Shown in pieces: positions 3,356 to 52,121 of a DNA stretch of 64,000 nt (positions within the stretch are counted from its first letter, which is position 1; each line of letters opens with the position of its first letter). Source of the stretch: Gammaproteobacteria bacterium. GTDB taxonomy: Bacteria; Pseudomonadota; Gammaproteobacteria; Steroidobacterales; Foliamicaceae. The position numbers and the translations under genes are program-made. The DNA lies in assembly GCA_963666765.1 (NCBI GenBank), contig OY762933.1, forward strand, positions 833,814 through 897,813, given 5' to 3'. A model generated the notes under the pieces. That model had not been told where the DNA came from. It saw only the letters and a list, made by a program, of their open reading frames with translations, and did no database searches.

Positions 3356-3446
3356 TGGCGGAGAGGGTGGGATTCGAACCCACGATACGGTATGACCGTA
3401 TACCTGATCTCCAATCAGGCGCCTTCGTCCACTCGGCCACCTCTCC
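3356..3446 (-). tRNA. tRNA-Ser (anticodon GGA), CCA encoded
   Basis: The reverse complement folds by hand as a class II tRNA. Acceptor GGAGAGG/CCTCTCC, anticodon stem CCTGA/TCAGG with loop TTGGAGA (GGA), long variable arm TATACGGTCATACCGTATC, T-arm GTGGG-TTCGAAT-CCCAC, 3' GCCA. Confidence 0.9.
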
Positions 3447-11036: not shown

Positions 11037-11256
11037 TCCAAAACGGAAGTTCAGTCTCGCGGCTTGGATTTTGACAACGTGCAGCTCCGCCTCAGCATCT
11101 CCCTTCTGCGCGCTTCGGCATCGTCGGCCACGGCGATTCCAGGAAAGTGGCTTTCGGTTTGCATACGACAGCGCCTCGTAGCCGCACCCTGCGGGACTGA
11201 CTTCTATAAAATAGAGGCATGGACAGTCTGGGGCGGTTTTCCTGATCGGATTGAAG

Positions 11257-12657
11257 ATGCGGAGTAATAGGCGAAGCGCCGGACGCCGCAACGGCCTGCT
11301 TTTGCTATTGACGTTGTCGGCTCTATGCCTGCAAGGGGCGGATGCCCAGGAGCCGGTTCGCGCTTACCTGATGACGAGCACGGCAGCAAGTCCTTTAGGG
11401 CCTGTGGTGGAACTGCATATCATCAACACGTCCGATTTCGATTTGCGATTTACCGGGACGTTGTATGACGCTCAGGGCATGCAACTAGGCGAGGCGGGCA
11501 AAGCCTTGAGCGAATTGCCCATAAATGCAAATGCCCGCTTGATTCTTACATCCAGGGAACTGGAGCAACGCTTCATGATTGGCGCCTGGGTTCAGCCGGC
11601 AATGCTGGAGATCATGGCCGATGTTGACGGTGCGCCCTTTGTGGCGATGGTGAAGCTGCGCAGCAGGCCGGGCGCATCGATGAGCAACGTCAACTGCGTT
11701 ACCGAAAACTCGGTGCATAACATCGCAGGCTTCAATCAGCCGGATCAAACATTCGTTCGCTTTATCAATACGGGCCCCGAGGCGATCTCCGACGTGCGCG
11801 GCACACTGCGTGACGCCAACGGCAACCTCGTTGGGCTGGCCGATCGCGTGTTGTTTGACTCACTGGGAGCAAAGGTTCACACGTGGATCAGCGGACAGGA
11901 GCTGGCCACGCTGGTTGGCGGAGCGTGGGACGGGCAGGCTAGTTTGTACGTGTCCCGTCATTTCGGATTGAAATTGATGAACATGAATCTGTCGGCCAGC
12001 GGAACGTTCGACAATTTTTCCTGTCACGAGCAGGCGTTCGATCAGAATCGTTTTGCGTCAAGCGCCAGCTATACGGTTACATTCACCGCTCGGTGGACCG
12101 ATAGAGATCACGGCTTTGTGCCCGCCTCAGCCCACTTCACCACGCTGGTGGGCGCGGCAACGAACAAGCGTGCGAATCTGTGGGCGCCAGGAGAACTGGC
12201 GAGCCTGGGCCTGGAGAATGTGGCGGAGTTGGGTAGTACCGGGCAGTTCCTCAACGAGATTGACGCTGCCGTGGCGAGCATGACCGCGGCAGCAGCGGTG
12301 ACGGCCGGCGGCACCGGCAGCACGGGCACGAGTTCTTTCGATTTGAGTCTGAACCGGGACATGCCGCTGTTCACCTTCGCCAGCATGGTGGCGCCAAGCC
12401 CGGACTGGTTTGTCGGCTTGAGCGCATTCTCGCTGCTCGACCACCAGGGCGGCTGGATCAAGGACACGGGGCACATGAATCTCGCGGTTTGGGACGCAGG
12501 AACGGAAACCGGCAACCAGTTCAGCCTCAACGGCACGGCAACCAATCCGCCCCAGTCCATTGAGCGGCTGACCGCGACAGTCGGCGACGTGGAAATCGTC
12601 AACGGCGTCGTAAACGGCGCGTACCTGGCCAGCATTCGCTTACAGCGCAATCCCTGA
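11257..12657 (+). CDS. secreted protein with C-terminal spondin_N-like domain
   Basis: Signal peptide (LSALCLQGADA/QE). The C-terminal ~200 aa (YTVTFTARWT...AHFTTLVGA...PSPDWFVGL...WDAGTE) match the bacterial spondin_N pattern. The N-terminal ~260 aa are unassigned. ATG 11257 preferred over TTG 11251. Confidence 0.6.
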   Translation: MRSNRRSAGRRNGLLLLLTLSALCLQGADAQEPVRAYLMTSTAASPLGPVVELHIINTSDFDLRFTGTLYDAQGMQLGEAGKALSELPINANARLILTSRELEQRFMIGAWVQPAMLEIMADVDGAPFVAMVKLRSRPGASMSNVNCVTENSVHNIAGFNQPDQTFVRFINTGPEAISDVRGTLRDANGNLVGLADRVLFDSLGAKVHTWISGQELATLVGGAWDGQASLYVSRHFGLKLMNMNLSASGTFDNFSCHEQAFDQNRFASSASYTVTFTARWTDRDHGFVPASAHFTTLVGAATNKRANLWAPGELASLGLENVAELGSTGQFLNEIDAAVASMTAAAAVTAGGTGSTGTSSFDLSLNRDMPLFTFASMVAPSPDWFVGLSAFSLLDHQGGWIKDTGHMNLAVWDAGTETGNQFSLNGTATNPPQSIERLTATVGDVEIVNGVVNGAYLASIRLQRNP

Positions 12658-15525: not shown

Positions 15526-16385
15526 CCCAGGCATTGTCGGAAATCGTCGTCGCCGCCGGCGAAAGGCGCTCGGAAGTGCTCCGCATCGATCATCGGCAGG
15601 GAGAGCGGCAGACGCAGATCTTGCGCATACGGCTTGAGCCCGGCGCCGGCCTTGAGTTGCAGGAACTTCACCAGGGCAGTGGCCGCTGCGATGTACGGCT
15701 GGAGGTGGAGCTGGAACTTGGCAGCGGCGCCAGAATGCGCCACGCGGCCGTAGTGGACGATGCCGGAGAAGGGCATTTCGAAATCTACCGCCAGGTGCGC
15801 CTGGCCGATGATGCCCAATTGGATTACGCCCGCGTGGGATCCGGCGCCGCCAGCGACCGCGAGTACCTGCGCACCCGCATGGAGGGCGCCCGCGCCCGGT
15901 TCCGGCACAAGGCGCTGATGATGATGGATGGAGGCCGGCGGGCCGAACTGGACATGGAAATCGCCCACCATGCAAGAAACGCCGAGAGCGACAGCCTCTG
16001 CCGCTGCGTGCTGGGCCCCGGAGGCAATGGCCGCTTTGCGGGAAAGATCCTGATCGTGCCGGAAGGCCAGGGAGCCGACGCCCGGCTGCGGAATGACAAC
16101 CTGCTGCTGGACGAATCGGCCCAAATGGAAACCCGCCCGGAACTCGAGGTATACGCCGACGAAGTGCAATGCGCCCACGGCGCGGCCACCGGCGCCCTGG
16201 ACGAGGCCGCCCTGTTCTACCTCAGGACCCGCGGCATGTCGCCGGACCAGGCCCGGGCGATGCTGGTGCGGGCCTTTGCGTCGCGCATTACCGCAGCCAT
16301 CGATTTCCCCGAAGCCGCAAGAATGGCCGGCGGCATGCTCGACCGGGATCTGAACGACGCCACTCCACTCGAGCTGGCCGCCTGA
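15522..16385 (+). CDS. sufD: Fe-S cluster assembly protein SufD (short form, 287 aa)
   Basis: Conserved C-terminal SufD core (ELEVYADEVQCAHGAATGALDEAALFYLRTRG). ATGA overlap with sufC. Lacks about 130 aa relative to E. coli SufD. Confidence 0.85.
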   Translation: MTQALSEIVVAAGERRSEVLRIDHRQGERQTQILRIRLEPGAGLELQELHQGSGRCDVRLEVELELGSGARMRHAAVVDDAGEGHFEIYRQVRLADDAQLDYARVGSGAASDREYLRTRMEGARARFRHKALMMMDGGRRAELDMEIAHHARNAESDSLCRCVLGPGGNGRFAGKILIVPEGQGADARLRNDNLLLDESAQMETRPELEVYADEVQCAHGAATGALDEAALFYLRTRGMSPDQARAMLVRAFASRITAAIDFPEAARMAGGMLDRDLNDATPLELAA

Positions 16386-16390
16386 AAACG

Positions 16391-17644
16391 ATGAGCCGCG
16401 TTACCGCCCAACTCGCCGAAGTCCAGGCGCCGCTGTCGGCCGAAAGCCTGCGCGCCGACTTCCCCAGCCTGGCTACCCGTGTGCACGACAAGCCGCTGGC
16501 CTACCTTGACAACGCCGCCTCCACCCAGCGGCCGCAGCCGGTAATGGACGCCCTGACCGAATACGAGGTCGAAATGCACGCCAACGTGCACCGCGGCGTG
16601 CATGCACGCTCGGACCGGGCCACGGCCGCTTTCGAGGGGGCGCGGGAGCGTGCCCGGGCCTGGCTGAACGCCGCCTCCGGCGATGAACTGGTTTTTACCC
16701 GCGGAGCCACCGAATCGATCAACCTGGTGGCGCGATGCCTGGACGACCGCATGGATTCCGGCTCGGAGATCCTGTTGACCGGCATGGAGCACCATTCCAA
16801 TATCGTGCCCTGGCAGCAGCTTTGCCAACGCACCGGCGCGCGTCTGAAGGTCGCACCGGTACTGGACTCGGGAGCGCTGGATATGGACGCCTTCCGTGGC
16901 CTTGTCGGCCCGCGGCTCGGCCTGATCGCAGTGACCCACGTATCGAACGCGATGGGCGTGATCAACCCGGTGGACGACATCTGCCGCATGGCCCGACAGG
17001 CGGGCGTTCCCGTCCTGATCGACGGCGCCCAGGCGGCGGGCCACATTCCACTGGACGTGCAGGCGCTGGGCTGCGATTTCTATGCGTTCTCCGGCCACAA
17101 GATGTACGCGCCCACCGGCATCGGGGCGCTCTACGCACGCGCTCCGTGGCTGGACGACCTGCCGCCGTTCCTGGGCGGCGGCGAGATGATCCTGGAAGTG
17201 CGTTTCGACGGCGCCACCTACAACACGCCGCCGCACAAGTTCGAGGCCGGAACACCCAATATTGGCGGCGCAATCGCGCTGGGCGCAGCCATGGACTACC
17301 TGGCCGGCCGCGGACTTTCCCGTCTTGCGGCGCTGGAGCATGAGCTGCTGGAATACGCCACCGAGCGCCTGCTGGACGTCCCCGGCCTTCGGATCATCGG
17401 CACGGCGTCCCCCAAGTCTGCCGTGATTTCATTCGTGATCGACGGCATCCATCCGCACGATCTCGGGACGGTGCTGGATCACGAGGGCGTTGCGATTCGG
17501 GCCGGTCACCACTGTGCGATGCCGCTGATGGACCGCTTCGGCGTGCCGGGCACGGCGCGCGCTTCGTTTGCCTTTTACAACACACTTGAAGAGGTGGACC
17601 GGCTTGTGAGCGGAATCGGCGCCGCGCGCAAACTGTTCGCTTAG
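16391..17644 (+). CDS. sufS: cysteine desulfurase SufS (group II)
   Basis: YLDNAASTQ, HSNIVPWQ, SGHKMYAPTGIG (PLP lysine) and RAGHHCA (active-site Cys) motifs. Start at ATG 16391. Confidence 0.93.
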   Translation: MSRVTAQLAEVQAPLSAESLRADFPSLATRVHDKPLAYLDNAASTQRPQPVMDALTEYEVEMHANVHRGVHARSDRATAAFEGARERARAWLNAASGDELVFTRGATESINLVARCLDDRMDSGSEILLTGMEHHSNIVPWQQLCQRTGARLKVAPVLDSGALDMDAFRGLVGPRLGLIAVTHVSNAMGVINPVDDICRMARQAGVPVLIDGAQAAGHIPLDVQALGCDFYAFSGHKMYAPTGIGALYARAPWLDDLPPFLGGGEMILEVRFDGATYNTPPHKFEAGTPNIGGAIALGAAMDYLAGRGLSRLAALEHELLEYATERLLDVPGLRIIGTASPKSAVISFVIDGIHPHDLGTVLDHEGVAIRAGHHCAMPLMDRFGVPGTARASFAFYNTLEEVDRLVSGIGAARKLFA

Positions 17645-17647
17645 GGC

Positions 17648-18109
17648 ATGGGTGAAGAGCTGCAAAGCCTCTATCAGCGAACGGTGCTGGAGCACTGCCG
17701 CTCGCCGTGCAACTTTCACGCCATGGACCGGCCTGACCGGGTGGCCGAAGGTTTCAATCCCCTGTGCGGCGACAAGGTGACCGTATATTTGCGCGTCGGG
17801 AGAGAGGGCCGCCCGGCGTCCATTGCGGGAATCAGCTTCGAGGCCGCCGCCTGCGCCATCTGCCTGGCTTCGGCTTCCATGATGACGGAACTGCTCGGCG
17901 GCGAAGACGCGCGTGAAGCGAGGCAGCAGGCCGAAAAGGTCCTGGAGGCTTTCAAACCCGAAGCGGAGAACGGCCTGGCGGACCTCGGCGAAATCGTCGC
18001 CCTGGGCAGCGTCCGCGCCTACCCCTCCCGGATTCGCTGCGTCACGCTCCCGTGGCGAACTTTCACGGCCGCGCTGGATCGCGACGCGAATACCGTGAGC
18101 ACCGAGTAA
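17648..18109 (+). CDS. sufU: SufU/IscU-like (NifU N-terminal family) sulfur-transfer/scaffold protein
   Basis: NPLCGD...AACAICLASASMM...three-Cys pattern typical of SufU-type proteins. Starts 3 nt after the sufS stop. Confidence 0.8.
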   Translation: MGEELQSLYQRTVLEHCRSPCNFHAMDRPDRVAEGFNPLCGDKVTVYLRVGREGRPASIAGISFEAAACAICLASASMMTELLGGEDAREARQQAEKVLEAFKPEAENGLADLGEIVALGSVRAYPSRIRCVTLPWRTFTAALDRDANTVSTE

Positions 18110-18114
18110 ACGCC

Positions 18115-18666
18115 ATGTTCGGAAACCAGAGCGAGCCCGTCACGCTGACCCGCAACTGCAAGGCCGTCATCATTCCGGCGGGCGAGGAGGCGCAACTGAA
18201 CGCCGGACAGCTGGTATTCATCACCCAGTCGCTGGGCGGCAGTTTCACCGTTTATGTGGACGGCTGGCTTTACCGCATTGCCGGCGCCGATGCCGATGCG
18301 CTCGGCAAGAAGCCGCCCGAACCGCCCAGACTGCCTGCGGGCGCGGGCGATGCCGACGTGGAAGCAGTGGTGTGGGAGCAGATGAAGACCTGCTACGACC
18401 CGGAAATCCCGGTCAACATCGTCGACCTCGGACTCGTGTATCTCTGCGAAGTCAAGCGCCGCGCCGACGGCAAGCGCGACGTGGCCGTGGAAATGACGCT
18501 TACCGCCCCCGGCTGCGGCATGGGCGAAATCCTGGTGGAGGATGTGCGCGAGAAGATCGCCATCATCCCCACCATCAACGAGGTCGCCGTAGAGCTAGTC
18601 TTCGCCCCCCCCTGGAACCAGAGCATGATGTCCGAGGCCGCCCAACTGGAGGCCGGCCTGATGTAG
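18115..18666 (+). CDS. sufT: SufT-like Fe-S assembly protein (DUF59/MIP18 C-terminal domain)
   Basis: C-terminal YDPEIPVNIVDLGLVY...TLTAPGCGMG DUF59 motif. Start at internal ATG 18115. Confidence 0.75.
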   Translation: MFGNQSEPVTLTRNCKAVIIPAGEEAQLNAGQLVFITQSLGGSFTVYVDGWLYRIAGADADALGKKPPEPPRLPAGAGDADVEAVVWEQMKTCYDPEIPVNIVDLGLVYLCEVKRRADGKRDVAVEMTLTAPGCGMGEILVEDVREKIAIIPTINEVAVELVFAPPWNQSMMSEAAQLEAGLM

Positions 18667-18743
18667 CCCCGCGCATCCCGCTAACCTGCACGGGCTGAAG
18701 CAACGTAAAACTGGTCACAGTTTCCCGAATTACAATTGTCGCA

Positions 18744-32376: not shown

Positions 32377-32967
32377 CTAATCCGCCGGGTCCCAGTCGAC
32401 GATCAGCCGGCGCTCCTGGAGGTTGACCTCGCGCACCCGGCTTCCCGGCACAAAGGGAATCAGCCGCCTGCGCCTGCCCTCCACGATCAGCACGTCATTG
32501 GCGCCGGTGGCCATCAGGCCGCTGACCCGGCCCAGGGGCTCGCCCTCGAGATTTCGCACTTCGAGGCCTTCCAGGTCGGCCCAATACCATTCATCCTTGC
32601 CGGCCGGCGGCAGATCCGCGCGATTCACCCGGATCTCCGCGCCGCGCAGGCCTTCCGCCGCATCGCGCGTATCTATCCCTTCCAGGAGGCATTCCAGGCC
32701 CCGGGGAGTGATCCGAAAGCGCTGCAAGGTCATCTCCCTGCACTGGCCGTTCACGAGCAGATTCCAAGTGCGGTAGTTCTGAAGTTGTGCGGGCGGGTCG
32801 GCAAAGGATTTCACCCTGAGCCAGCCCTTCAGTCCCCGGGCGGCGCCCAGCCGGCCCATGGGAATCAGTATTGCTTCCGGCGTCTGGTTCTCCGGCTGTT
32901 CCGGCTCAGCCCGAGTCCTTGCCGGTCGCGGTGGCGCCTTGGCCATCTTCCTGCGCGCCGCCGTCAT
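32377..32967 (-). CDS. rimM: 16S rRNA processing protein RimM
   Basis: [18 protein letters not shown]... and PRC-barrel C-terminus. The start is uncertain (32967, 32946 or 32859). The two longer options overlap the rpsP tail. Confidence 0.85.
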
Positions 32968-33601
32968 CCGGCGCGTCCTCGTCTGGTTCTTCCCCGGCCT
33001 CCGCCGCGGCCTGTTCGGCTTCGCCCTCGCCTTCCGCCGCTTCTTCTTCGGATGCCGCCGCTGCTTCCTGTTCGGTCTCGCCCTCCTCTTCCGCTACTGC
33101 TTCCCCGGCGGTCGCCGCTTCCTCCGCGTTCAGCTCTTCCGCGGCAGTCTCTTCGGCTTCGGCCGCAGGCTTGCCGTCCGTCTCGGCCTGGGCCGCTTCT
33201 TCTTCGGCAGCCTCGGCGGTCACAGCCTCTTCCTCAGAAGCCTCCTCGACCCTGGCTTCTTCTGCCGGAGCCGTCTCCGCGGCAACATCGGCGGCCACGT
33301 TCTCCGGAGCCTCGTCCGCAACAGCAGCCTCCTGCGCCTCACTGGCCGCCTGGTCCCCCTCCATGCGCCGGCGGCGAATCAGTTGCCGCACGCGCTCGGA
33401 GGGCTGCGCACCCTGTCCCAGCCAGTAATCGACCCGATTCAGAGCCAGCTTCAGGTGCTGCTCCCCGCCGGTCGCGATGGGGTTGTAGAAACCCAGGCGC
33501 TCGATAAACCGACCGTTGCGCTTGTTTCGCCGGTCGGTAACGACGATGTGATAAAAAGGTCTTTTCTTGGCCCCGTGACGGGAAAGCCTTATGCCTACCA
33601 T
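32906..33601 (-). CDS. rpsP: 30S ribosomal protein S16 with a ~150-aa Glu/Ala-rich C-terminal extension
   Basis: [41 protein letters not shown]... canonical S16 core (~85 aa). It is followed in-frame by an acidic low-complexity tail to the stop at 32906. Confidence 0.88.
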
Positions 33602-33819
33602 GGAAAATAATCCCGCGGCCAAGCCGCTCGTAAAACCTGTAGATTGTACCAAATCTGATCCTGTTTCCCGCTCATCATTACGCTTACCTGACACACTCCT
33701 GCATAACCTGGGGACGTGGACCTCACCTCGGGTTAAATGGAAAGCAAGTTCGGCGTAAGTTCGCAAGCGCTGCCGACCGTAGTATATTTTCAATAATATC
33801 TGTAGGTTAGAATGATAGT

Positions 33820-34443
33820 ATGCGGAAAATATCAAGAACATTAGCCTGGCTTGTCGTTACCGCAGTGCTGGCCGCAGTTCTTGGCCTGTTATTCGGGGCC
33901 AATGTCGAAAAGGCACCGGAATCATCCGCTGTGATGTCAGGCGAGTCTCCGGATCCCGCGCAAACCACCCGGACTGATCAAGCCGCAACCGGAATCGCAA
34001 CCCCTGGACGGGCCTGGAACACCGTCGATCCCGATCAGGTTGAGCGCCTGCCGCCCTACAAGGAAACAGTCCCGGGCAGGCGGCTGGTTCGTATTGCGGA
34101 TTCGATACAGAACTGGAAGGAGGGCGACGAGGTGGCTTTTGAGGTGAAGCAACTGGGAAGGACTCTCGACGGCCTGGTGGAGCAGGTTAAGGTGGATGGT
34201 TGGGGGAACCGCTCCTACGTGGGCTCAATCAAGGAGCCCGGAACACGAAGCTACAGGTTTTTGGTTACAGTTGGAGCCCGAAACACCTTTGCCTATCTGG
34301 ACACGCCACAGGGAACCTTTGAACTTGTTGCGTTGAATGATCTGGGCTGGCTCATGCCCACGGCAGGCATGGATCAGCATGTGGATTTCAGCCGCCCTGA
34401 CATTATCGGACCGGAAGCGGAGCGTTACCGGCGACCGCGCTAA
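33820..34443 (+). CDS. hypothetical membrane-anchored/secreted protein upstream of the giant metzincin gene
   Basis: N-terminal hydrophobic anchor ([20 protein letters not shown]). No family recognised. Same strand as the giant gene and 20-80 nt upstream of it. Confidence 0.5.
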
Positions 34444-34504
34444 GGCCCGGGGCGCTACAGGCTCAGGTTTGAAAACTCACGCCATTACATCAGGCAGTCT
34501 TGCC

Positions 34505-37500
34505 TTGGGGGATCCCAAGCGATTGCCCCATTGGCCGATTCGCGCACTACTTGCAGTGGGGAGCGTAGCGCTTCTGGTATTGCCTTCGCCGCGAGCGCAG
34601 GCGCATCAGCATATCGAGCTGGTTTGCCCCTGTCGCGTAGAAACCTCCAATCTGACCTCCGTCACGCTGACTTTCGGCCTCCGCAATCTTAATGATGAAG
34701 AAGCCGACGGGCCCTTCCGGATCGTGCTGCTCGGGCGCAGCGCTGATTCGAAAGGCGAATGGAAAGAACTGGCTACCGCGCACGCCCCGGTGGTACAGGC
34801 AAGTTCAGAACATGCGGTTCAGGATTACACGGTGGCGCTCAAGGAACCCGAACGAAGCGGCAGATACGAATTCGGGTTGGAGGTGTACGAGGAAACGGAG
34901 GATTACTGGCCGGTTCAATCCATCTACTGGATTGCCGAAACAGTGGAACTGGAAACCGGCGGAAGCGCTTTTTCCTCCGCTTATTTCGAGGGCGCCCCCT
35001 CCATCCGGATCAGCGGTGAAAGCGCCACGCTGAATCTGCCCATCATCCGCAATGCCCCCAAGGGGCCGTCCGCCGGTCAAGTGAAGGCCGCGCTAATGGC
35101 CACTGAGCAAAAGGAGTTCGATTCGCCGCGCTCGACCATAGCGGAACGGACGATCGGCGAATTACCGCCGGGGGGCGAAATCCCGGCGGTAAGACTGACA
35201 TTTTCTTATTCGCCCGCCGCCGGAAGAAACTACCTGCACGCAGTGATACTGAACAGCGAGGGTGGCCTGCTTGCATATCAGACAATAGTCGTTCCGCCGG
35301 GGGGAAAGCTTCCGGAGCGAAGGTTCGCCACGTCCGACGCCGACATGCTCAAAGACACGGACGGCGACGGCGTAGGTGACGTCAACGAACGGCTTGAAGG
35401 CACCGATCCGAACGACGGCAACTCCACTCCCGGCGACTCCACAATTGACGTGCTGGCGCTTTACAGCCCCGGCCTGGCGGAACTGTACCGGGGCGACGCC
35501 GTCTCCCGCATCAGTCATCTGATGACGCTTACCGATGAAATATTCAGAAACAGCGGCTCAGGGATGCGCATCCGTCTGGTGGGTATCAGCGAAGCCGCGA
35601 TCGATGACACTGTGACCGACTCCACCGTGCCCGAAGGAGAGCTGCGCGAACTCACGGAACTGCACGGCGCGGACATGGCCGTGATGTTCCGGCCGTTTGT
35701 TGAAAACACGGGCCTGTGCGGATGGGCGCCTGCTATAGGAGGGTATCAGGACAACGGCATCATTAACGATTTCATTGACGCCCCCTTAGGCCATGTTTTC
35801 GGTGACTGCGGCGCGATCACCACGGCCCACGAGCTGGGACACCTCATGGGCCTTGGACATTCTCAAGCGCAGGGCGAGGTAGGCACTTTCCGATGGGCGC
35901 GGGGTCACGGCGTATGGGAGGAGTTCGTGACGGTAATGGCGTACAGCAGCGCCTACGGCCATCCCGAAGAGATCGGCTTGTTCTCCAGTCCGCAGCGGGA
36001 TTGCAACGGCTTCCCCTGCGGGATCGGCGCTGGAGCGGCGGACAGCGCGGATGCGGCGAGAACGCTCGGCGTCGTGCGGTTTCAACTGGAGGACATCAAC
36101 GAGCAGAAGCCGGATTCCGATAATGACGGATTCATTGATACCGTTGACGCATTTCCTGATGATCCGAACGAACTGCGGGACACCGACGGCGACGGCATCG
36201 GCGATAACGCCGACCCCGACGCCGATAACGACGGCGTGTTGGACGCCGTCGATTTCTATCCGCTGGACCCACGTGAATGGGCGGACACCGACGGCGACGG
36301 CGTGGGGGACAACGCGGATGCCTTCCCCGAGGACTGGCTGGAAACCAAAGACACCGACAGCGACGGGGCCGGCGACAATTCAGACCGTTTCCCGCTGGAT
36401 CCTTCGGAAACGGTGGACACCGACAACGACGGGGTCGGGAATAATGGCGATCCGTTTCCATTCGATTCGCGCGAATGGGCGGATACCGACGGCGACGGCA
36501 TCGGCGATAACGCCGACCCCGACGCCGACAACGACGGCGTTCCGGACACACAGGATGTGTATCCTCGCGATGCCACGCGGTCAGAATACTCCTCGTACAG
36601 GTTCATCGGCGAAGGTTTGCTGGGCGAGCCGAAGTTGTCGTCCGCTGGCGACCTCGACGGCGATGGCCGCTCCGAACTGCTTGTCGGAATGCCCTGGACA
36701 TGGAACGGCGGCAAGCGAGGAGGAGGCTGGCTGCTTGCGGCCGCGGACCTGCGCGCGGCGGACGAAGCTGATGGCGTAGCGGATCACATTATCGATCTGG
36801 ACCAGACCGGCCCCCTGCCCGGGTCGTGGAGGTTTTCCGCTGAATCGGCTGGAGACGAGGCCGGAAGCAGCGTCGCCAGGGCTGGCGACATCGATGGCGA
36901 CGGCGTCGCGGATCTGCTGATTGGAGCCCAGAATCACGGACCTGCGGAACAGCTCTGGTTCGCTGGCGCAGCGTATCTGATCTCGGCGGGAGACCTGACA
37001 GCGGCGGACGTAGAGGATGGCGAGGCGGATCGTGTTATCGAACTGAAGCATATCGCCCGGCAGCAGAACTCATGGAAATTCGTCGGGGGGACGGAACATA
37101 CCTACGCCGGCTTTCGCGTAGGTGGCCTGGGCGACTTTAATGGAGACAGCCGGGATGATCTCGTGATTGCCGCCCGTACCGAGGCCGGGACGATTTACGT
37201 AGTGTCCGGCCGTGAACTTGCCGCCGCAGACGAAGCCGACGGTACAGCGGACAGTCTCATTTCATTGTCCCGGATAGCCGAAAGGCCCGGGTCCTGGAAA
37301 CTGGTCGGCGCGCAGGAAGAGGATTACGCGGGCTATGTGGCCCCGGTGGATGATATCGACGGGCATGGCGGCAGGGGCTTGATAATGGCCTCCGGGCTCC
37401 ATTCGGGAGAATCAGGCAGAGGTATCGGAGCGGTCTATCTGGCGGCGGCCTCCGATCTCCCGGCGGTAGATCAGGCCGATGGCGCTGCGGATGGCGTAGT

Positions 37501-40500
37501 TGACCTTGGCCGGATATCCGAAGGACAACATTCCTGGATATTTCTGGGCGCAGTGAACGATCCCCTGCGGCACGCCGTTTCCCTTGGACCCGCAAATGTC
37601 GGCGATCCTCCGGACATGCTCTTGATGAGCGTCAACACGATCTTCTATCTCAAGGGCGCCAGCCTGGCCGAGGCGGACCAGGCTGATGGCGATTCAGATC
37701 ATGTCATTCGCCTCGATGTGGCCGATTCTCCGACCACGCCCCTGGCGAAAATCAACTCCTTCAACATATTTGGGTTTGCGTCTTTGGGAGACGTGGATGG
37801 TGACGGGATGTCCGATCTGTTTTTGCCCGGAATCCATGGGCATCTTATTGGCCGGCAGGAGTTAAGCGCCTTGAAACCTGGCGATGACGTCCGGATCGAA
37901 GACCTCCACGCGCGCGGAGAATCCTGGAAGCTTGTCCAGACCGGGGATTTCCATCACGTGCTTCCGGCGGGAGATGTGGATGGCGACGGGCGCACGGATG
38001 TTCTCGCAGCCACGCAGGACGAGTTCTATCTTCTGGCTTCTTCCGACCTCGTCCTTCTTGACAGCGCCAACGGGGCCCCGGACAGAACAATTGAAATGGC
38101 CCAGGTTGGCGGAGACGAAAACGGCGACGGAATCCCCAACATTGTCGATCAGGATGACGATGGCGATGGCTACCTGGACAGCGTGGACCGCTTCCCTTCC
38201 GATCCGGTCGACTGGATTGATTCGGATGGCGATGGCGTAGGCGACAACAGGGATTTGTTTCCGTCCGACCCTTTCGAGCACTCGGACACGGATGCCGATG
38301 GTCTGGGTAACAGCGAGGATCCGGATGACGATAATGACGGCATTATGGATTGGAACGACCCATTCCCCCGGGACACCGACGATGACGGAACGGAAAACGC
38401 ATATGACGAGGATGACGACGGCGACGGCGTGCCGGACAGGAACGATCACTTTCCGCTGGACCCCTCTGAATCGAGGGACACGGATGGCGACGGGACCGGT
38501 GACGCTGCGGACGGCGATGATGATAACGACGGCGTTGCCGACGAAGAGGACCACTTGCCGCTGGATCCCTCCGAATCGGTGGACACGGATGGAGACGGCG
38601 TCGGAGACAATAGCGACGCCTTTGCCGACAATCCTCAGGAGTCGTCGGACCATGATGGCGACGGCGTAGGCGATAACAGCGACAGGGATGATGATGGAGA
38701 TGGAGTGCCCGACCTGAGTGACGCCTTCCCCCTGAACTCCGCTGAGTCATCCGACAGCGACAGCGACGGTGTGGGCGATAACTCGGATGCATTTCCGCGT
38801 GATGGATCCGAGTGGGCGGACACCGACAACGACGGACTGGGCGATAACACCGATGATGATGATGACAACGACGGATATACGGATAATGCCGACGCGTTTC
38901 CGCTGCGCCCGAATCAAACACGGCTGTTTCATTACCGGCTGCAGGGAGAAAGACCGGGCTCGCGCGCCGGCGCAGCTGTTTACCCGGCGGGCGATAGCGA
39001 TGGCGACGGACTCGATGAAGCGTTGATCGGCGCACCGGCGGTTAGCTGGCCCGGCGGGATCATTTCCTTCGGCGCCGCGTACCTGGTCTCCGGCGCTGAC
39101 CTGGATGCCTCGGACCGTGCGGACGGTATCGCTGACGGCGCAATTGATCTTGGAAACGCGCCGGCGCAACCATCCTCATGGGCAGTAACCGGAAGCCTGG
39201 TCCGTGATCAGGTCGGGCGCTCCATCACGCGGCGGGGCGAAGGCGGCGGCCTATGGACCATCAGCGCGCATGGGCATGAGAATCACCGGGGATCGGTATT
39301 TCTGACCTCCTCCGAACGGATTGCGGATGCCGACAGGGAGGACGGGCAGGATGGGATTGCGCGAACCGACTATTTGCGGCATAAGTCCGGCGTCTGGGAA
39401 TTGATCGGCGAAAATGAAGCAACAGATACCGGTTACTCCGTATCTTCCGCGGGGGACGTGCATGCGGATGGTCACAATGACGTGCTGGTGGGCGCGCCTC
39501 TGTATGGCGACCGGGGCGAAGGCGCCGCCTACCTGATTTCAGGCGCTGATCTGGAAGGACTGGACGCCGCGGATGGCCAGAGCGACGGGCGTATCGAGCT
39601 GGCCCGCGCCGCCGCGCAGACCGGATCATGGAAATTGGTGGGCAGTGACGGGCAGGCGGGCGAACATGTGGCGTTTGCCGGCGACATCGACGGCGATGGC
39701 CGCTCCGATCTGATCATCGGCGCACCCTTCGGTTCGGAAGGAGAAAGGCTGCGGGGCATTGTGTATCTCGTGGCCGCGGCGGATTTGAGCGCCGCGGACG
39801 GAGCCGACGGCCAGACGGACGGCGTCATTAATCTGGATAACGTTGCAGAACAGGCCGAATCATGGAAGTTCCTTGGCGAGGAAATGCTCAATTTCGCGGG
39901 GAGCGCCGCCATGGCGAAAAACATGGACGGAGACGGAAAGCCGGAATTGGTGATTACGGCGCCAGGACACGGCCAGGGCAGCGGAGCAATCTACATTCTT
40001 CCGATGGACCATCTGGCCGCGGCGGACGCCGCGGATGGAACCAGCGACCATGTGATTCTCCTGAATGAATTCCCGGATTCTCTGGAAGGCGCATGGAAAC
40101 TGACAGGCGAAGGCAACGCCTTCTGGAGCTTTGGCGTGGGCAGTGGGGCGGGAACCTCCCTGTCCGGTCTGGACCTCAACCGCGATGGCCGGACGGAACT
40201 GCTGATAGGCGCCCCGAACTACATGGAACGTGGCATCTGGTGCGCGGAGGCGGGGCGGCAGCAGCAGCCCGGCGCCGTGTATCTCATCTCAAGTGATGAC
40301 CTGGCGCGCGCGGACGCCGCGGATGGTGAAACGGACAGGGTGGTCAGGCTGGCGAAAACGATCGGAGCGGGCAATTCGTGGAAATTCGTGGGCGAAGCCA
40401 CTGACCGTATGGGATCGAGCATTTCCGGCGCGGGCGACCTGAACGAGGACGGAACGGTGGATCTCATTTTTGGAGCGGCGGATCAGTTCCGGCGCGCAAG

Positions 40501-47753: not shown

Positions 47754-47876
47754 ATCGAAATCAAAGGCAAGCGGATATCGAGCTTTTGTAACTTAAGTTC
47801 TATTTATTCTATTGAATAAAATTAGTGCATGATGTAAATTTACTTCCCAATCTAATCATGCATAAGGATACTGTTC

Positions 47877-49088
47877 ATGATTGAACTTGCTAATCCATTC
47901 AAACCAGGTGCCGGTCACCAGCCCCCATACTTGGCAGGCCGTCAAGCCGAAAAGAGGGAATTCTTACGGCTACTGAAGCAGGACACCATTCTTGAGAACA
48001 TGGTACTCACAGGCCTTCGAGGCGTTGGCAAGACCGTTTTGTTGGAAACTCTCAAACCACTTGCCTCCGAGAAAAACTGGATGTGGGTAGGGGCTGACCT
48101 ATCCGAATCTGCCAGCCTTACGGAAGCGAGCATTGCAACACGACTTTGCACGGACCTGTCGCCAATTACCTCCACCGTCATCGTTTCCAAAAAGCATGTC
48201 TATCCCATCGGATTTGCGGGCAGGGAGGAAACACTGGAGATGACTCTCAACTACGCCGCGCTTCTTGGTATCTATTCACACACGCCAGGGCTGGCTCTCG
48301 ATAAGCTCAAGATGGTGCTCGAAAGTGCGTGGGATGTGCTTTCAAGCGCAGGCGGTGTCCGGGGAATCATTTTTGCCTATGACGAAGCGCAAAACCTGGC
48401 TGACCATTCAGGAAAGGAAGAATTCCCTCTTTCCCTGTTGCTTGACGCCTTTCAATCTCTTCAACGTAAGGGCCTCCCACTAATGTTGGTCTTGACGGGA
48501 TTGCCAACCCTATTTCCGAGGCTTGTTGACGCACGTACATTTTGCGAGCGCATGTTTCGCGTTGTATTCCTGGAGAGCCTTTCTGATGCACATAGCAGGG
48601 AAGCAATCCAAAGACCTTTTGAAAGCATGCCCAATGTACCGACGCTTGACGAGTCGTCAGTAGACACAATCATTGGCATGTCCGGAGGCTACCCCTACTT
48701 TATCCAGTTCATTTGCAGGGAAGTCTATGATGTCTTTGTGCAATGTTGGCGTCGGGAAGAACCAGCTTCGGTTCCAATACATGAGATCCAACAAAAGTTG
48801 GATACAGACTTTTTCTCCGCGAGATGGGCACGAACGACAGACCGACAACGAGACTTACTTTTCGTGATCTCGCACTTGCCGGATTGTGATCGTGAATTTA
48901 CTGTGCAAGAGATTGTTGAAAAATCAAAAGAAGTGCCGGGAAAGTCCTTTAGCGGAAGTCACGCAAATCAGATGCTCTCCGCACTCGCCCGCCAAGGTCT
49001 CATCTTCAAGAACAGACATGGCAAGTACTCATTTGCCGTTCCGTTGCTTGGTGATTACATTCGCCGCAACTTCGAGGTCGCCCAATAG
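47877..49088 (+). CDS. AAA+/STAND-like ATPase (archaeal-ATPase/ORC-Cdc6-like type) with probable C-terminal winged helix
   Basis: ANPFKPGAGHQPPYLAGRQAEKREF N-terminal motif, Walker A GLRGVGKT, Walker B IIFAYDEAQ, C-terminal FTVQEIVEKS...LARQGLIFKNRHGKYSFAVPLL wHTH-like segment. AAGGA Shine-Dalgarno. Low GC. Confidence 0.7.
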   Translation: MIELANPFKPGAGHQPPYLAGRQAEKREFLRLLKQDTILENMVLTGLRGVGKTVLLETLKPLASEKNWMWVGADLSESASLTEASIATRLCTDLSPITSTVIVSKKHVYPIGFAGREETLEMTLNYAALLGIYSHTPGLALDKLKMVLESAWDVLSSAGGVRGIIFAYDEAQNLADHSGKEEFPLSLLLDAFQSLQRKGLPLMLVLTGLPTLFPRLVDARTFCERMFRVVFLESLSDAHSREAIQRPFESMPNVPTLDESSVDTIIGMSGGYPYFIQFICREVYDVFVQCWRREEPASVPIHEIQQKLDTDFFSARWARTTDRQRDLLFVISHLPDCDREFTVQEIVEKSKEVPGKSFSGSHANQMLSALARQGLIFKNRHGKYSFAVPLLGDYIRRNFEVAQ

Positions 49089-49203
49089 TCGAGGCGCGCG
49101 CCAATACCTGGATTGTGCAAGGCCACTCTCTACAGACAATTTACCAGCCCTGATCGTAAGGTGCAGGGGTGCTGCTCCAAGGTCGTTACAGGCCGGGGCG
49201 TTT

Positions 49204-50160
49204 CTATGAGCTGTTGTCGCGGAGACTCACTCGGAAGCGCGAGGGATCCATGCCAACGCTACGGATCACGAATGCCGTTCTGCCTAACATCCCGACTGCA
49301 TTGGCGTGTCTTGAGATATAGAAAGAACCAACCTGGGCCAGATTGACAAACGCTTTGCCCGAAGGATGGACCGGCCTCGTATTCACTGCGCAACTGCGGC
49401 CACCCGGGTTTCCTATCGGACACATATGCTCTTTCAAATGGCCGTGGCGAGCGAGCCACTGGACAGCCTCTTTTAGTACCTGCCACCAGAACCGTACTTC
49501 AACTGTTGTGTTGTCCGGTAAACAAACGCGGGAAACATGATGACCGACCTCGTTCTTAAGCTTTGTGATTGATGCCGGCAATGGCATATATCCATCCTCC
49601 GGTGGCGCCGGAGATGGCGGCAAAACAGTGTCACCCTCGTCAGGACCCTCGCGAAGCCCATTCAACATTGGAAGGGGCTGCAAGCTCCCGTCAAGAACGG
49701 CGGGACGCCAAATGGCCAGCGCATTCCGGCAGGCTTCGGCAATCGAGTTGCCAAGTTCGAAAGAAACAATCCGCTTATCTGTCAGCGGCACGGGTTTGTG
49801 CGTTTCATACACATCCCAGCGTTGGCCGTCCGTAACCGCAAAATACAACACGCCTTTTTGCAAAGTGTATTGAATACCCTGCTGGGTAGCCCTCTCAAGG
49901 CGGTCGCCTAGTTTCTTGGCCTCCACCATGATGACTGGCTTGCCGGCGCTGTTAAGCAGCGCATAGTCGGCGCGCCCTCCAGTAGCTGGATATTCCGGCG
50001 CTACGACAGCGGGATCCTCCGTATCCCAGTCCAGCGCCCGGAGTAATGGATCAATCAGAGCATAGCGGGTAAGAGTTTCGCTCTTGCTCAACGAATCCCG
50101 GTGCTCATCGATTCGGCGTGACAGCGTTTCGATGAGTTCGAGAAAATCGCGAAGCGCCAC
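49204..50160 (-). CDS. PD-(D/E)xK nuclease-fold protein (type I restriction HsdR N-terminal-like domain) with an unassigned C-terminal domain
   Basis: N-terminal TLTRYALIDPLLRALDW...GGRADYALL...PVIMVEAKK (D65, E80, K82 by ORF numbering) matches the HsdR_N-type core. About 170 C-terminal aa are unrecognised. GTG start uncertain. Low GC. Confidence 0.6.
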   Translation of the reverse strand: MALRDFLELIETLSRRIDEHRDSLSKSETLTRYALIDPLLRALDWDTEDPAVVAPEYPATGGRADYALLNSAGKPVIMVEAKKLGDRLERATQQGIQYTLQKGVLYFAVTDGQRWDVYETHKPVPLTDKRIVSFELGNSIAEACRNALAIWRPAVLDGSLQPLPMLNGLREGPDEGDTVLPPSPAPPEDGYMPLPASITKLKNEVGHHVSRVCLPDNTTVEVRFWWQVLKEAVQWLARHGHLKEHMCPIGNPGGRSCAVNTRPVHPSGKAFVNLAQVGSFYISRHANAVGMLGRTAFVIRSVGMDPSRFRVSLRDNSS

Positions 50161-50192
50161 TTTAGATTGCTTGGACTGGAGGGACGGCGAGA

Positions 50193-52121
50193 TCAGTGCT
50201 GTTCGGCAGGCTTGCCGATATCGGCGGCGGGCGGTCGCTTGCGTTTCTTGCCTGCGGCCTTTTTCTTCTTCTTGCCTGTCTTGCCCCAGCCCGGCGGAGG
50301 ACTGGGCTCCTGCCCGCCCATGATCTCCCCGATCTGGAACTGTTCGATCGTCTCGTACTTGAGCAGTGCGTCCGCCATGGCGTGCAGGCGCTCCATGTTG
50401 TCGGTAAGGATCTTCCTGGCCCGCTCGTAGGCGGTATCAATGATCTCCCGCACTTCCTTGTCGATCGCATGTACCGTGGCGTCCGACACCTGCTTGTGCT
50501 GGGTGACGGTTCTGCCGAGGAATACCTCGCCGTCCTCCTCGCTGTAGGTCAGCGGACCGAGACGGTTGGACAGCCCCCACTTGGTGACCATGTTGCGCGC
50601 GATCGCGGTGGCTCGTTCGATATCGTTGGCCGCCCCGGTGGTCACCGCGTCCTTGCCGAATATCAGCTCCTCGGCCACGCGGCCGCCGAACAGGCTGGTG
50701 ATCTGGCTGATCAGCCGCTGCTTCGAGTGGCTGTGGCGATCGACTTCCGGCAGGAACATGGTCACGCCCAGGGCGCGGCCGCGCGGGATGATGGTGACCT
50801 TGTGCACCGGATCGTGCTCGGGCACGTTCAGGCCCACGATGGCATGCCCGGATTCGTGGTAGGCGGTGAGCTTGCGCTCCTCGGGGCTCATCACCATGGA
50901 CTTGCGCTCGGTGCCCATCAGGATCTTGTCCTTGGCCTTCTCGAACTCCTCCATGGCCACCGACTTGTTCCCGACCCTTCCGGCCAGCAGCGCCGCCTCG
51001 TTTACCAGGTTGGCGAGGTCTGCGCCGGAGAAACCGGGCGTTCCGCGGGCCAGGGTGCTGGCCGACACGCTGTCGTGCACAGGCACCTTGCGCATGTGCA
51101 CCTTGAGAATCAGCTCGCGCCCACGAATGTCCGGAAGCGGCACCACCACCTGGCGGTCGAAACGGCCCGGGCGCAGCAGCGCCGGATCGAGCACGTCCGG
51201 CCGGTTGGTGGCGGCGATGACAATGATGCCTTCGCTGCCGGCGAACCCGTCCATCTCCACCAGGAGCTGGTTCAGGGTCTGCTCTCGCTCGTCGTGGCCG
51301 CCGCCCAGCCCGGCGCCGCGATGGCGTCCGACCGCGTCGATCTCATCGATGAAGATGATGCAGGGCGCCTGCTTCTTGGCCTGCTCGAACATGTCGCGCA
51401 CGCGTGATGCGCCCACGCCCACGAACATCTCCACGAAATCCGACCCGGAGATGGTGAAGAACGGGGCCTCCGCCTCGCCGGCAATGGCGCGTGCCAGAAG
51501 GGTCTTGCCGGTCCCCGGCGAGCCGACCATCAGCACGCCCTTGGGGATCTTTCCGCCCAGCCGCTGGAACCTGGAAGGGTCCTTCAGGAACTCGACGACC
51601 TCGGCAACTTCCTCCTTGGCTTCCTCTACGCCGGCCACATCCTCGAAAGTGACCGGAGTCTGGTCCGGATTCAGCAGGCGGGCGCGGCTGCGGCCAAAGG
51701 ACATGGCCCCGCCGCGGCCGCCAACGCCCCCCTGCATCTGGCGCATGAAGTACAGCCAGATGCCGATCAGCAGCAGGAACGGCAACAGGTTGAGCAGGAA
51801 GGAAAGCCAGGCGCTTTCCGACTTCGGCTTGGGCGAATGCACCTCCGCGCCGCTCACGGTGAGCTCGCGGACCAGTTCGGAATTGTCGGTGGACGGAGGA
51901 CTGTAGGTTACGAATTCTCCGCCGCCGACCTGTTCGCCGCGAATTGTGCGGTCTTCCAGGATCTCGACTTCCTTGATCCCGCCGTTGCCGACCAGTTCAA
52001 GGAACCGGGAAAAGTTGATCTCCTCGGCCGGGGTCCCCCGGTTGTTCAGGGGCTGCAGCAACATCATGAGGGCCAGCGCTATGACCAGCCACAGGAAGAG
52101 ATTCTTGGTGAACTTGTTCAT
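50193..52121 (-). CDS. ftsH: ATP-dependent zinc metalloprotease FtsH
   Basis: Walker A GSPGTGKT, Walker [21 protein letters not shown] zinc motif, 642 aa. Confidence 0.97.

Follow-up and report, generated by a model that had tools for sequence, protein, structure and literature searches.

What kind of protein is encoded by a single open reading frame (ORF) of about 8.1 kb in a member of the Gammaproteobacteria, and does it act alone? The ORF lies in a stretch of 64,000 nucleotides (contig OY762933.1 of assembly GCA_963666765.1, positions 833,814 to 897,813), hereafter the window. It codes for a giant metalloprotease, in which a metzincin catalytic domain is followed by three units of a thrombospondin type 3 (TSP3)-like tract plus a seven-bladed FG-GAP propeller. 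A gene of the CpaB/BamI family is located directly upstream. Because of this partner and of the Mep72-like head of the protease, the locus belongs to a known, experimentally studied kind. We consider it probable that the two genes form one functional module, namely a Sec-exported zinc protease that is paired with an inhibitor/chaperone, is secreted by the type II system, and uses its propeller tail for calcium-dependent binding or targeting. A preliminary description of this DNA had parsed the domains of the large protein correctly but had overlooked the partner gene. The module comprises the following elements.

33760..33788, + strand: sigma-70-like promoter match, TTCGCA-17-TATATT (9/12 matches), upstream of the chaperone gene
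33820..34443, + strand: putative chaperone/inhibitor gene of the CpaB/BamI family, 207 amino acids (aa), 61 nt upstream of the protease gene and on the same strand
34505..42592, + strand: giant metalloprotease gene, 2,695 aa, TTG start; alternative TTG at 34523

The protease head and its upstream partner

The longest ORF on the plus strand spans positions 34337-42592. Its ATG falls inside the preceding gene, and this start was discarded because of that overlap and because the homologues begin further downstream. The TTG at 34505 yields a protein of 2,695 aa, which is exactly the length of the proteins encoded on two other contigs, an independent one of 1.59 Mb (98.4% identity) and one of 2.95 Mb (99.96% identity, one residue different). 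Judged from sequence, the TTG at 34523, with GGGGGA in front, is an equally plausible start. The single ORF reported earlier agrees with these equal lengths. The accompanying concern, that repeats might have caused an assembly error, does not hold. The protease gene is internally repetitive, as such an artefact would require, but its repeats are no longer than 150 nt and only 60-89% identical, and about 45 homologues show the same three-block layout. Since the repeats are short and diverged and the layout is shared, the ORF is not an assembly artefact; together with the two proteins of equal length, this effectively refutes that explanation.

The N-terminal part of the protein, referred to here as the head, contains the following features.

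34505..34603, + strand: Sec signal peptide (aa 1-33), read from sequence, predicted cleavage between AQA and HQ
34610..35299, + strand: two tandem beta-sandwich domains (aa ~36-265) with a conserved CPC motif at aa 41-43 (AlphaFold2, Foldseek)
35354..35395, + strand: single calcium-loop motif DTDGDGVGDVNERL (aa 284-297), invariant in the family, joining the beta-sandwiches to the catalytic domain
35417..36109, + strand: metzincin catalytic domain (aa ~305-535), adamalysin/reprolysin fold, Mep72-like (Pfam, NCBIfam, Foldseek)
35828..35863, + strand: zinc-binding motif HELGHLMGLGHS (aa 442-453), HExxHxxGxxH pattern
35930..35944, + strand: Met-turn TVMAY (aa 476-480), 22 residues after the zinc motif

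The first 560 residues were modelled with AlphaFold2 (mean predicted local distance difference test score, pLDDT, 74). The model places a helix at aa 10-25 of the signal region, and the AxA motif is kept in the family consensus. A lipoprotein signal was rejected, as no lipobox precedes Cys41. The preliminary description had recognized the signal peptide and had left some 300 residues behind it unassigned; AlphaFold2 and Foldseek resolve this region as two beta-sandwich domains. It is all-beta, with pLDDT means of 10-residue blocks mostly between 85 and 97 (range 75-97), and has no Pfam match. Its Foldseek matches are tandem beta-sandwich proteins: Vps26, transglutaminase C-terminal barrels, and the biofilm scaffold RbmA of V. 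cholerae. Within the calcium-loop motif DTDGDGVGDVNERL, residues D284, D286, D288, G289, D292, N294, and E295 are invariant in the 41 aligned sequences over which the conservation of head residues was judged.

The reprolysin-like catalytic domain announced earlier, with its zinc motif, was recovered at the same place. Reprolysin_3 (33.3 bits) and Reprolysin_5 (29.5 bits) exceed their curated Pfam cut-offs of 22.4 and 27 bits; Reprolysin_4, at 20.5 bits, stays under its cut-off of 22. The NCBIfam model of Mep72 (NF052434) matches the head with E = 3.1e-43 and 148.2 bits over profile positions 1-245 of 573, which is the whole metzincin part, while that of CpaA gives E = 3.9e-4. The N-terminal half of the domain was modelled with confidence. 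Its Foldseek matches include ADAMTS-5, ADAM33, and snake-venom metalloproteinases, with template modelling (TM) scores of 0.52-0.58 normalised to the target; a sequence-only search of the PDB gave marginal similarity to ADAMTS-5 (E = 0.26).

Among the best 120 matches to the giant protease, which constitute our homologue set, the zinc pattern HE..H..G..H is kept in 119, with Ser or Ala as the twelfth residue. The same 119 proteins carry a five-residue Met-turn match behind it, which reads T.M.Y in 118, and both M478 and Y480 are invariant in the alignment. Because the active site is so uniformly kept, the protease is very probably functional. An Asp right after the third zinc histidine is a hallmark of adamalysins. 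It is absent from this protein, which has Ser, and from the family, which has Ser or Ala. Judged from these residues, the catalytic domain is adamalysin in fold without being a canonical adamalysin.

Two metzincins with a dedicated partner have been studied experimentally. Mep72 of P. aeruginosa, a metzincin secreted by the type II system, has two carbohydrate-binding modules, from which it processes itself away; it is toxic in E. coli unless BamI, with which it forms a complex, is co-expressed (PMC4334185). CpaA of Acinetobacter possesses Ig-like repeats besides the metzincin domain and depends on the membrane-anchored CpaB both to be stable and to be secreted by the type II system (PMC4713064, PMC7542363).

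The product of the upstream gene starts with a membrane anchor (aa ~8-25), which a variable linker connects to a lipocalin-like domain; its C-terminal tail is nearly invariant. The anchor was read from the sequence as a hydrophobic stretch (aa 8-25) after RK..R with no small-residue cleavage site behind it. The NCBIfam CpaB model (NF033512) recognizes the protein with E = 8.2e-8 and 32.4 bits, under the equivalog cut-off of 90 bits. In the partner family, 29 of 31 members match CpaB and 10 of 31 match BamI (NF052435). Precomputed Pfam annotation assigns PF27177 (BamI_lipocalin) to all 30 homologues of the partner, including the 99%-identical P0139. Our Pfam scan of the window's own partner protein gave no match; PF27177 may be newer than the release scanned. 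Sequence searches of the PDB yielded nothing with the partner alone and only chance matches with a 6-sequence profile; with a 31-sequence profile, the CpaB chain 6o38_G was the only related match, and a weak one (E = 0.34). Because the match to a solved structure is so weak, the link to CpaB rests on the NCBIfam and Pfam models, which support homology of the partner to CpaB/BamI at family level rather than as an equivalog.

The pairing of the two genes recurs in every relative compared. In six relative loci (L001-L006) compared for upstream context, the partner gene lies directly upstream of the protease, and the surroundings differ from those in the window except in L002, a near-identical strain. 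In two relatives with 50-57% identity, P0055 and P0056 (the latter at L007 6001-12510), the partner and a two-propeller protease share one reading frame, the partner being attached to the mature N-terminus of the protease, and a short linker stands where the signal peptide would be. These natural fusions point to a partner that acts in the manner of a detachable pro-domain. A single promoter-like site stands in front of the gene pair and none was seen in the 61-nt gap, which gives a weak hint that the two genes are one operon.

Calcium-binding tracts and propellers of the tail

Behind the catalytic domain, tracts and propellers alternate up to the stop codon.

36110..36574, + strand: TSP3-type calcium-binding tract 1, 7 DxDxDGxxD loops, no Cys (Pfam TSP_3, loop count)
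36608..38134, + strand: FG-GAP propeller 1 (aa 702-1210), seven blades (blade model, AlphaFold2)
38135..38929, + strand: TSP3-type calcium-binding tract 2, 12 loops (loop count, family profile)
38954..40642, + strand: FG-GAP propeller 2 (aa 1484-2046), seven blades, Cys pair at aa 1913 and 2001 (blade model, collinearity)
40643..41104, + strand: TSP3-type calcium-binding tract 3, 8 loops (loop count)
41126..42583, + strand: FG-GAP propeller 3 (aa 2208-2693), seven blades (blade model, collinearity)

Pfam detected FG-GAP (E = 2e-54) and TSP_3 (29.1 bits, over the cut-off of 25) in the tail, so that, with Reprolysin_3 and Reprolysin_5 in the head, all domain types previously proposed for profile parsing were found. 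The acidic tracts (aa 536-700, 1195-1480, and 2035-2215, or about 36110-36600, 38090-38940, and 40610-41150 in the window, in agreement with the positions given earlier) consist of 32-35% Asp plus Glu and contain 27 DxDxDGxxD loops in all. Eight cysteines are present in the protein, none of them within these tracts. Blades were counted with a blade-length hidden Markov model built from the protease family. It identified 7+7+7 blades, four of the 21 being partial matches (blades 5 and 6 of block 1, blade 2 of block 2, and blade 6 of block 3). Both the three acidic tracts and the seven FG-GAP units per block of the preliminary description are borne out by these counts. The three propeller blocks are collinear over ~500 aa with 30-33% identity and E = 1e-59 to 1e-70 (propeller 2 versus 1: 33%, E = 6e-70; propeller 3 versus 1 and 2: E = 5e-60 and 3e-59). 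Matches to the DxDxDGxxD calcium loop within the 21 blades number 12 by strict and 15 by relaxed definition.

Block 1 (aa 680-1215) was modelled by AlphaFold2 from a 41-sequence alignment. The model, with a mean pLDDT of 89.2 and a predicted TM-score (pTM) of 0.90, is one compact domain of seven repeat units. Each unit contains, besides four strands, a helix that covers the conserved DLxAADxADG segment and one short additional strand. Integrin alpha propellers make up the whole of the 50 best PDB matches (E = 1e-11 to 2e-8, ~590 aligned columns), at 12-16% sequence identity. The pTM and these matches argue for a closed ring. The folding check that had been suggested for the seven-bladed propellers thus supports block 1, whereas propellers 2 and 3 were assigned by collinear homology to it and not from models of their own. 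According to the model, the propellers represent a distinct subtype of FG-GAP blade, characterized by the extra helix plus strand.

The family profile also matches animal proteins: COMP (3fby, E = 5.2e-28) and thrombospondin-2 (E = 6e-22) over tract 2, and the integrins alpha-IIb, alpha-V, and alpha-5 (E ~1e-14) on their calcium-binding blades. The protein could accordingly be a molecular mimic acquired from an animal host, with integrin- and thrombospondin-like modules as decoys that compete with host adhesion receptors. The profile matches and the purely integrin structural matches of the propeller are in line with this idea. So are the G+C contents at third codon positions (GC3) of the two module genes (0.615 and 0.68), which are under those of neighbouring housekeeping genes (0.80-0.86), as expected of acquired DNA. 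In sponge symbionts, an enrichment of repeat and adhesion proteins and domains of eukaryote-like type has been reported, and genes of this type are laterally exchanged among them (PMC8163846). Mimicry nevertheless appears improbable to us. Identity to integrins amounts to only 12-16%, the blades of ~75-80 aa contain a helix plus strand insert that integrins lack, and the protein has no integrin leg domains, no beta subunit, and no thrombospondin C-terminal domain. The TSP type 3 repeats of animals are disulfide-bonded, but the tracts described here lack cysteines and for that reason group with bacterial TSP3 repeats. Pfam holds a separate family for these (TSP3_bac), which matches relatives of the giant protease. 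Because of the absent cysteines, the family-specific blade insert, and the Ser after the third zinc histidine, the tracts and blades look like bacterial versions of the modules and not like recent imports from animals. The earlier label of a protein like those of the eukaryotic extracellular matrix is justified by the matches to animal proteins but overstated for the same three reasons.

Distribution, genomic setting and proposed role

Within the homologue set, two propeller blocks were found in 70 proteins, three in 45, and four in one. The architecture was regarded earlier as not a standard described one in bacteria. Our literature search also produced no description of a protease-propeller protein of this kind; the profiling suggested at that time, however, makes it neither rare nor unique. 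The protease head is represented by 234 clusters (50% identity) at E <= 1e-30 and by 948 at E <= 1e-10, in proteins of ~390 to 3,150 residues. Their tails comprise RCC1 plus FG-GAP, DUF5719, a lamin-tail domain, or a second protease, and head-only relatives of ~550 aa exist. As other bacteria combine this head with many different tails, the design fits a constant protease head with an exchangeable targeting tail. The relatives are named 'M12 family metallo-peptidase [Gammaproteobacteria bacterium]' or 'hypothetical protein' at NCBI. A scan of a genome collection gave one locus, in an uncultured gammaproteobacterium (53% identity), and a search of a plasmid collection with the upstream flank gave no match. 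Judged from these sequences and from the literature searched, the family is widespread in metagenomes and has not previously been described or characterised. Paralogues occur: four (P0020, P0024, P0033, and P0043) are encoded on one 3.47-Mb contig, and L003 has a second one of 2,718 aa (16237-24157, minus strand), convergent to the first.

Several copies per genome, such as these four and the convergent pair, are typical of adhesin families. The protein might thus be mainly a calcium-dependent adhesin or matrix scaffold, whose metzincin merely processes or releases its own protein and has no external substrate. About 80% of the protein consists of binding-type modules, the N-terminal tandem beta-sandwich resembles RbmA, and Mep72 auto-degrades and showed no activity on generic substrates (PMC4334185). 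We hold this explanation to be rather unlikely. In 119 of 120 homologues the active site is strictly kept. The dedicated inhibitor/chaperone is retained throughout, which argues for a protease potent enough to need containment, and the head-only relatives indicate that the head works without a tail.

The proposed secreted, partner-controlled protease would operate as follows; by analogy with the studied pairs, we infer its secretion route, its inhibition by the partner's tail, its calcium dependence, its ligand, and its substrate. The giant protease would be exported by Sec, and the partner, anchored in the inner membrane and facing the periplasm, would capture the newly exported head. The conserved C-terminal tail of the partner would enter the active-site cleft and so hold the head inactive; the partner would also make the protease competent for type II secretion, to which the protease would then be passed. 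Outside the cell, the large protein would be a calcium-dependent zinc endopeptidase with three propellers held apart by calcium-stiffened TSP3-type spacers. The 2,150-residue tail is most likely a multivalent calcium-dependent device for binding or targeting, in place of the carbohydrate-binding modules of Mep72. Through this tail the protease would be held on an extracellular matrix, which would belong either to an animal host (probably a sponge) or to a biofilm.

Several observations weigh against this scheme. No genes of type II secretion (gsp) turned up among the scanned ORFs of the 64-kb window, and ~290 kDa is very large for a type II substrate. The matches to CpaB, BamI, and Mep72 are far under the equivalog cut-offs (32 versus 90 bits for CpaB; 148 versus 645 bits for Mep72), so that both proteins are relatives and not orthologues of these. 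The gene order in Acinetobacter is opposite (cpaA then cpaB). The C-terminal catalytic subdomain (aa 452-515), which includes the Met-turn, was modelled poorly (pLDDT <50), and block 1 reaches TM-scores of just 0.33-0.46 against integrins, which we attribute to the blade inserts. The sponge association, finally, is tentative, being presumed from an accession series and from the name of the record with the fused relatives, which probably belongs to the sponge metagenomes of PMC8163846.

A C-terminal sorting signal (type I, V, IX, or PEP-CTERM-like) was considered and rejected: the N-terminal Sec signal is present, and propeller 3 stops two residues before the stop codon and so leaves no room for a sorting domain. 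The lack of an outer-membrane anchor or another secretion signal, the large size, and the membrane anchor of the partner could also mean that the protease is not secreted and stays in the periplasm or on the envelope, permanently associated with its partner. Few sponge-symbiont lineages have been reported to possess secretion systems (PMC8163846). Both Mep72 and CpaA, however, are type II secreted (PMC4334185, PMC4713064), and the need for a periplasmic inhibitor implies a protease that acts elsewhere. The conserved cysteines and the many predicted calcium sites suit a protein that works outside the cell in sea water, which contains ~10 mM calcium. Retention in the envelope is therefore considered highly improbable.

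As to the host genome, the DnaK of the window has an identical counterpart on the 2.95-Mb contig and shares 91% identity with the DnaK of 'Candidatus Foliamicus sp.', a member of the Gammaproteobacteria (order Ca. Foliamicales). The uncultured marine bacteria with this family are probably host-associated. The low GC3 of both module genes (33820-42592), together with an Asp codon GAT used much more than in the housekeeping neighbours, suggests that they were acquired laterally or are expressed at a low level. Two further proteins encoded in the window have domains of eukaryotic appearance. One of 1,356 aa (18744-22814, plus strand) possesses a Big_2 domain, a long array of leucine-rich repeats (LRR_1, E = 3e-48), and a partial match to Peptidase_M66 (StcE-like) near the C-terminus (aa 1096-1164, E = 4e-6); it is the second large protein of the window that combines eukaryote-like repeats with a metalloprotease. 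The other, of 468 aa (11251-12657, plus strand), has a Spondin_N domain (E = 2e-32), familiar above all from F-spondin, a matrix protein of animals. An accessory role of the module in host interaction fits the low GC3, the differing genomic contexts of the relatives, and the presence of the Spondin_N and LRR/M66-like proteins.

A more specific version of this role is that the module serves as a symbiosis tool of sponge-associated Gammaproteobacteria, whose propellers would bind animal matrix in a calcium-dependent manner and deliver a matrix-cutting protease. This version is possible though doubtful. If true, the bacterium could settle in, remodel, or feed on the mesohyl of its host; host or ligand specificity would be tuned by having two, three, or four propellers and several paralogues per genome; and the protein would be an independently assembled bacterial counterpart of the animal ADAM/integrin/thrombospondin toolkit. 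The family is a concrete candidate for attachment of symbionts to, or remodelling of, animal matrix. It extends the chaperone/inhibitor-paired metzincins, so far studied in two pathogens, to a large modular family in uncultured marine bacteria, and its ~290-kDa beads-on-a-string members raise the question of the size limit of type II secretion. Current understanding is not overturned; the value of the analysis lies in annotation and in pointers for experiments.

Directly after the giant gene, the window contains an AAA_14/DUF4143 ATPase gene (42827-44008, plus strand). This gene is missing in L002, where a metallo-beta-lactamase/alkyl-sulfatase-like gene follows at once, and it is a strain-specific insertion, the second one in the window. 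The other is probably a small stretch at 47800-50200 with a low G+C content (0.528 versus ~0.64). It carries an AAA_16 ATPase gene (47877-49088, plus strand) and a match to type I restriction HSDR_N-like proteins (49204-50160, minus strand), and is perhaps a defence island. In the 98%-identical strain this stretch is missing, and the decarboxylase and ftsH genes are ~400 bp apart. On the other side, an rpsP-rimM-trmD-rplS cluster is divergent from the chaperone gene. It is headed by rpsP (32906-33841, minus strand), whose product, ribosomal protein S16, has an unusually long Glu/Ala-rich acidic C-terminal extension. A HipA_C toxin-kinase-like gene (1909-3216, minus strand) adjoins the only tRNA gene of the window, tRNA-Ser(GGA) (3356-3446, minus strand). 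In L004, a 5.0-Mb genome, a gene for an ankyrin-repeat protein (16251-16793, minus strand) is located immediately downstream of the giant protease homologue, so that a further protein with eukaryote-like repeats adjoins the module there.

Comparison with known systems

Integrin alpha propellers share with the blocks of the giant protease the seven FG-GAP blades and the DxDxDGxxD calcium hairpins, and they account for all 50 best PDB matches of the block 1 model. The giant protease is not an integrin. It contains three propellers in one chain, without a beta subunit, thigh and calf legs, or a membrane anchor, and each blade has an extra helix plus strand (DLxAADxADGxxDxVIxL...SWK). Calcium loops are confined to the later blades in integrins but occur in most blades of the giant protease. 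The spacer tracts resemble the type 3 repeats of thrombospondins and COMP in their tandem DxDxDGxxDxxD loops and in the profile matches to COMP and thrombospondin-2. Unlike these, they have no cysteines and thus none of the disulfides of the animal wire, and they link propellers instead of wrapping a lectin-like C-terminal domain, which is absent.

With the animal adamalysins (ADAM, ADAMTS, and snake-venom proteins, M12B), the giant protease has in common the extended zinc motif, the Met-turn, the catalytic fold, and the order of protease followed by adhesion-type modules. It differs by the Ser instead of Asp behind the third zinc histidine and by the absence of disintegrin and TSP type 1 domains, and by sequence alone it resembles solved M12B structures no more than marginally (E = 0.26). 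The Tyr of its Met-turn (TVMAY) is more like that of serralysins and astacins. A cysteine-switch pro-domain is also missing, and a separate protein appears to take that role.

The closer relatives are bacterial. The gene order is that of Mep72/BamI (PA2783/PA2782), with the small inhibitor gene immediately in front of the gene for the metzincin. The catalytic domain covers the metzincin part of the NCBIfam Mep72 model in full, and the partner family matches both the BamI model of NCBIfam and the BamI_lipocalin family of Pfam. Mep72 and the giant protease also have in common a Sec signal peptide and a C-terminal non-catalytic binding tail (PMC4334185). Mep72, however, has 599 aa and two carbohydrate-binding modules, whereas the giant protease has 2,695 aa, two N-terminal beta-sandwiches, and three TSP3 plus propeller units, and its 148 bits compare with a cut-off of 645 for Mep72 orthologues. 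The partner has a clear membrane anchor, in contrast to BamI, which is described as partly unfolded.

CpaB is resembled by the partner in the NCBIfam matches of its family (29/31) and in the N-terminal transmembrane anchor (PMC4713064), and CpaA is resembled by the giant protease in the Ig-like beta domains ahead of a C-terminal-type metzincin domain (PMC7542363). The tail of CpaB, which blocks the active site of CpaA, has a parallel in the strongly conserved C-terminal tail of the partner. The differences from CpaA/CpaB (PDB 6o38) are the reversed gene order, in which cpaA precedes cpaB, and the build of CpaA, which has four Ig-like repeats and no tail. Sequence similarity to both is weak (E = 3.9e-4 for CpaA and 0.34 for the solved CpaB chain), and CpaA was not among the top 50 structural matches of the head model. 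By sequence, the head of the giant protease is homologous to the heads of Mep72 and CpaA and an orthologue of neither. The locus is an oversized relative of the Mep72/BamI and CpaA/CpaB pairs and not a wholly new system: the protease head is kept, and the small binding domains are swapped for a propeller tail of 2,150 residues.

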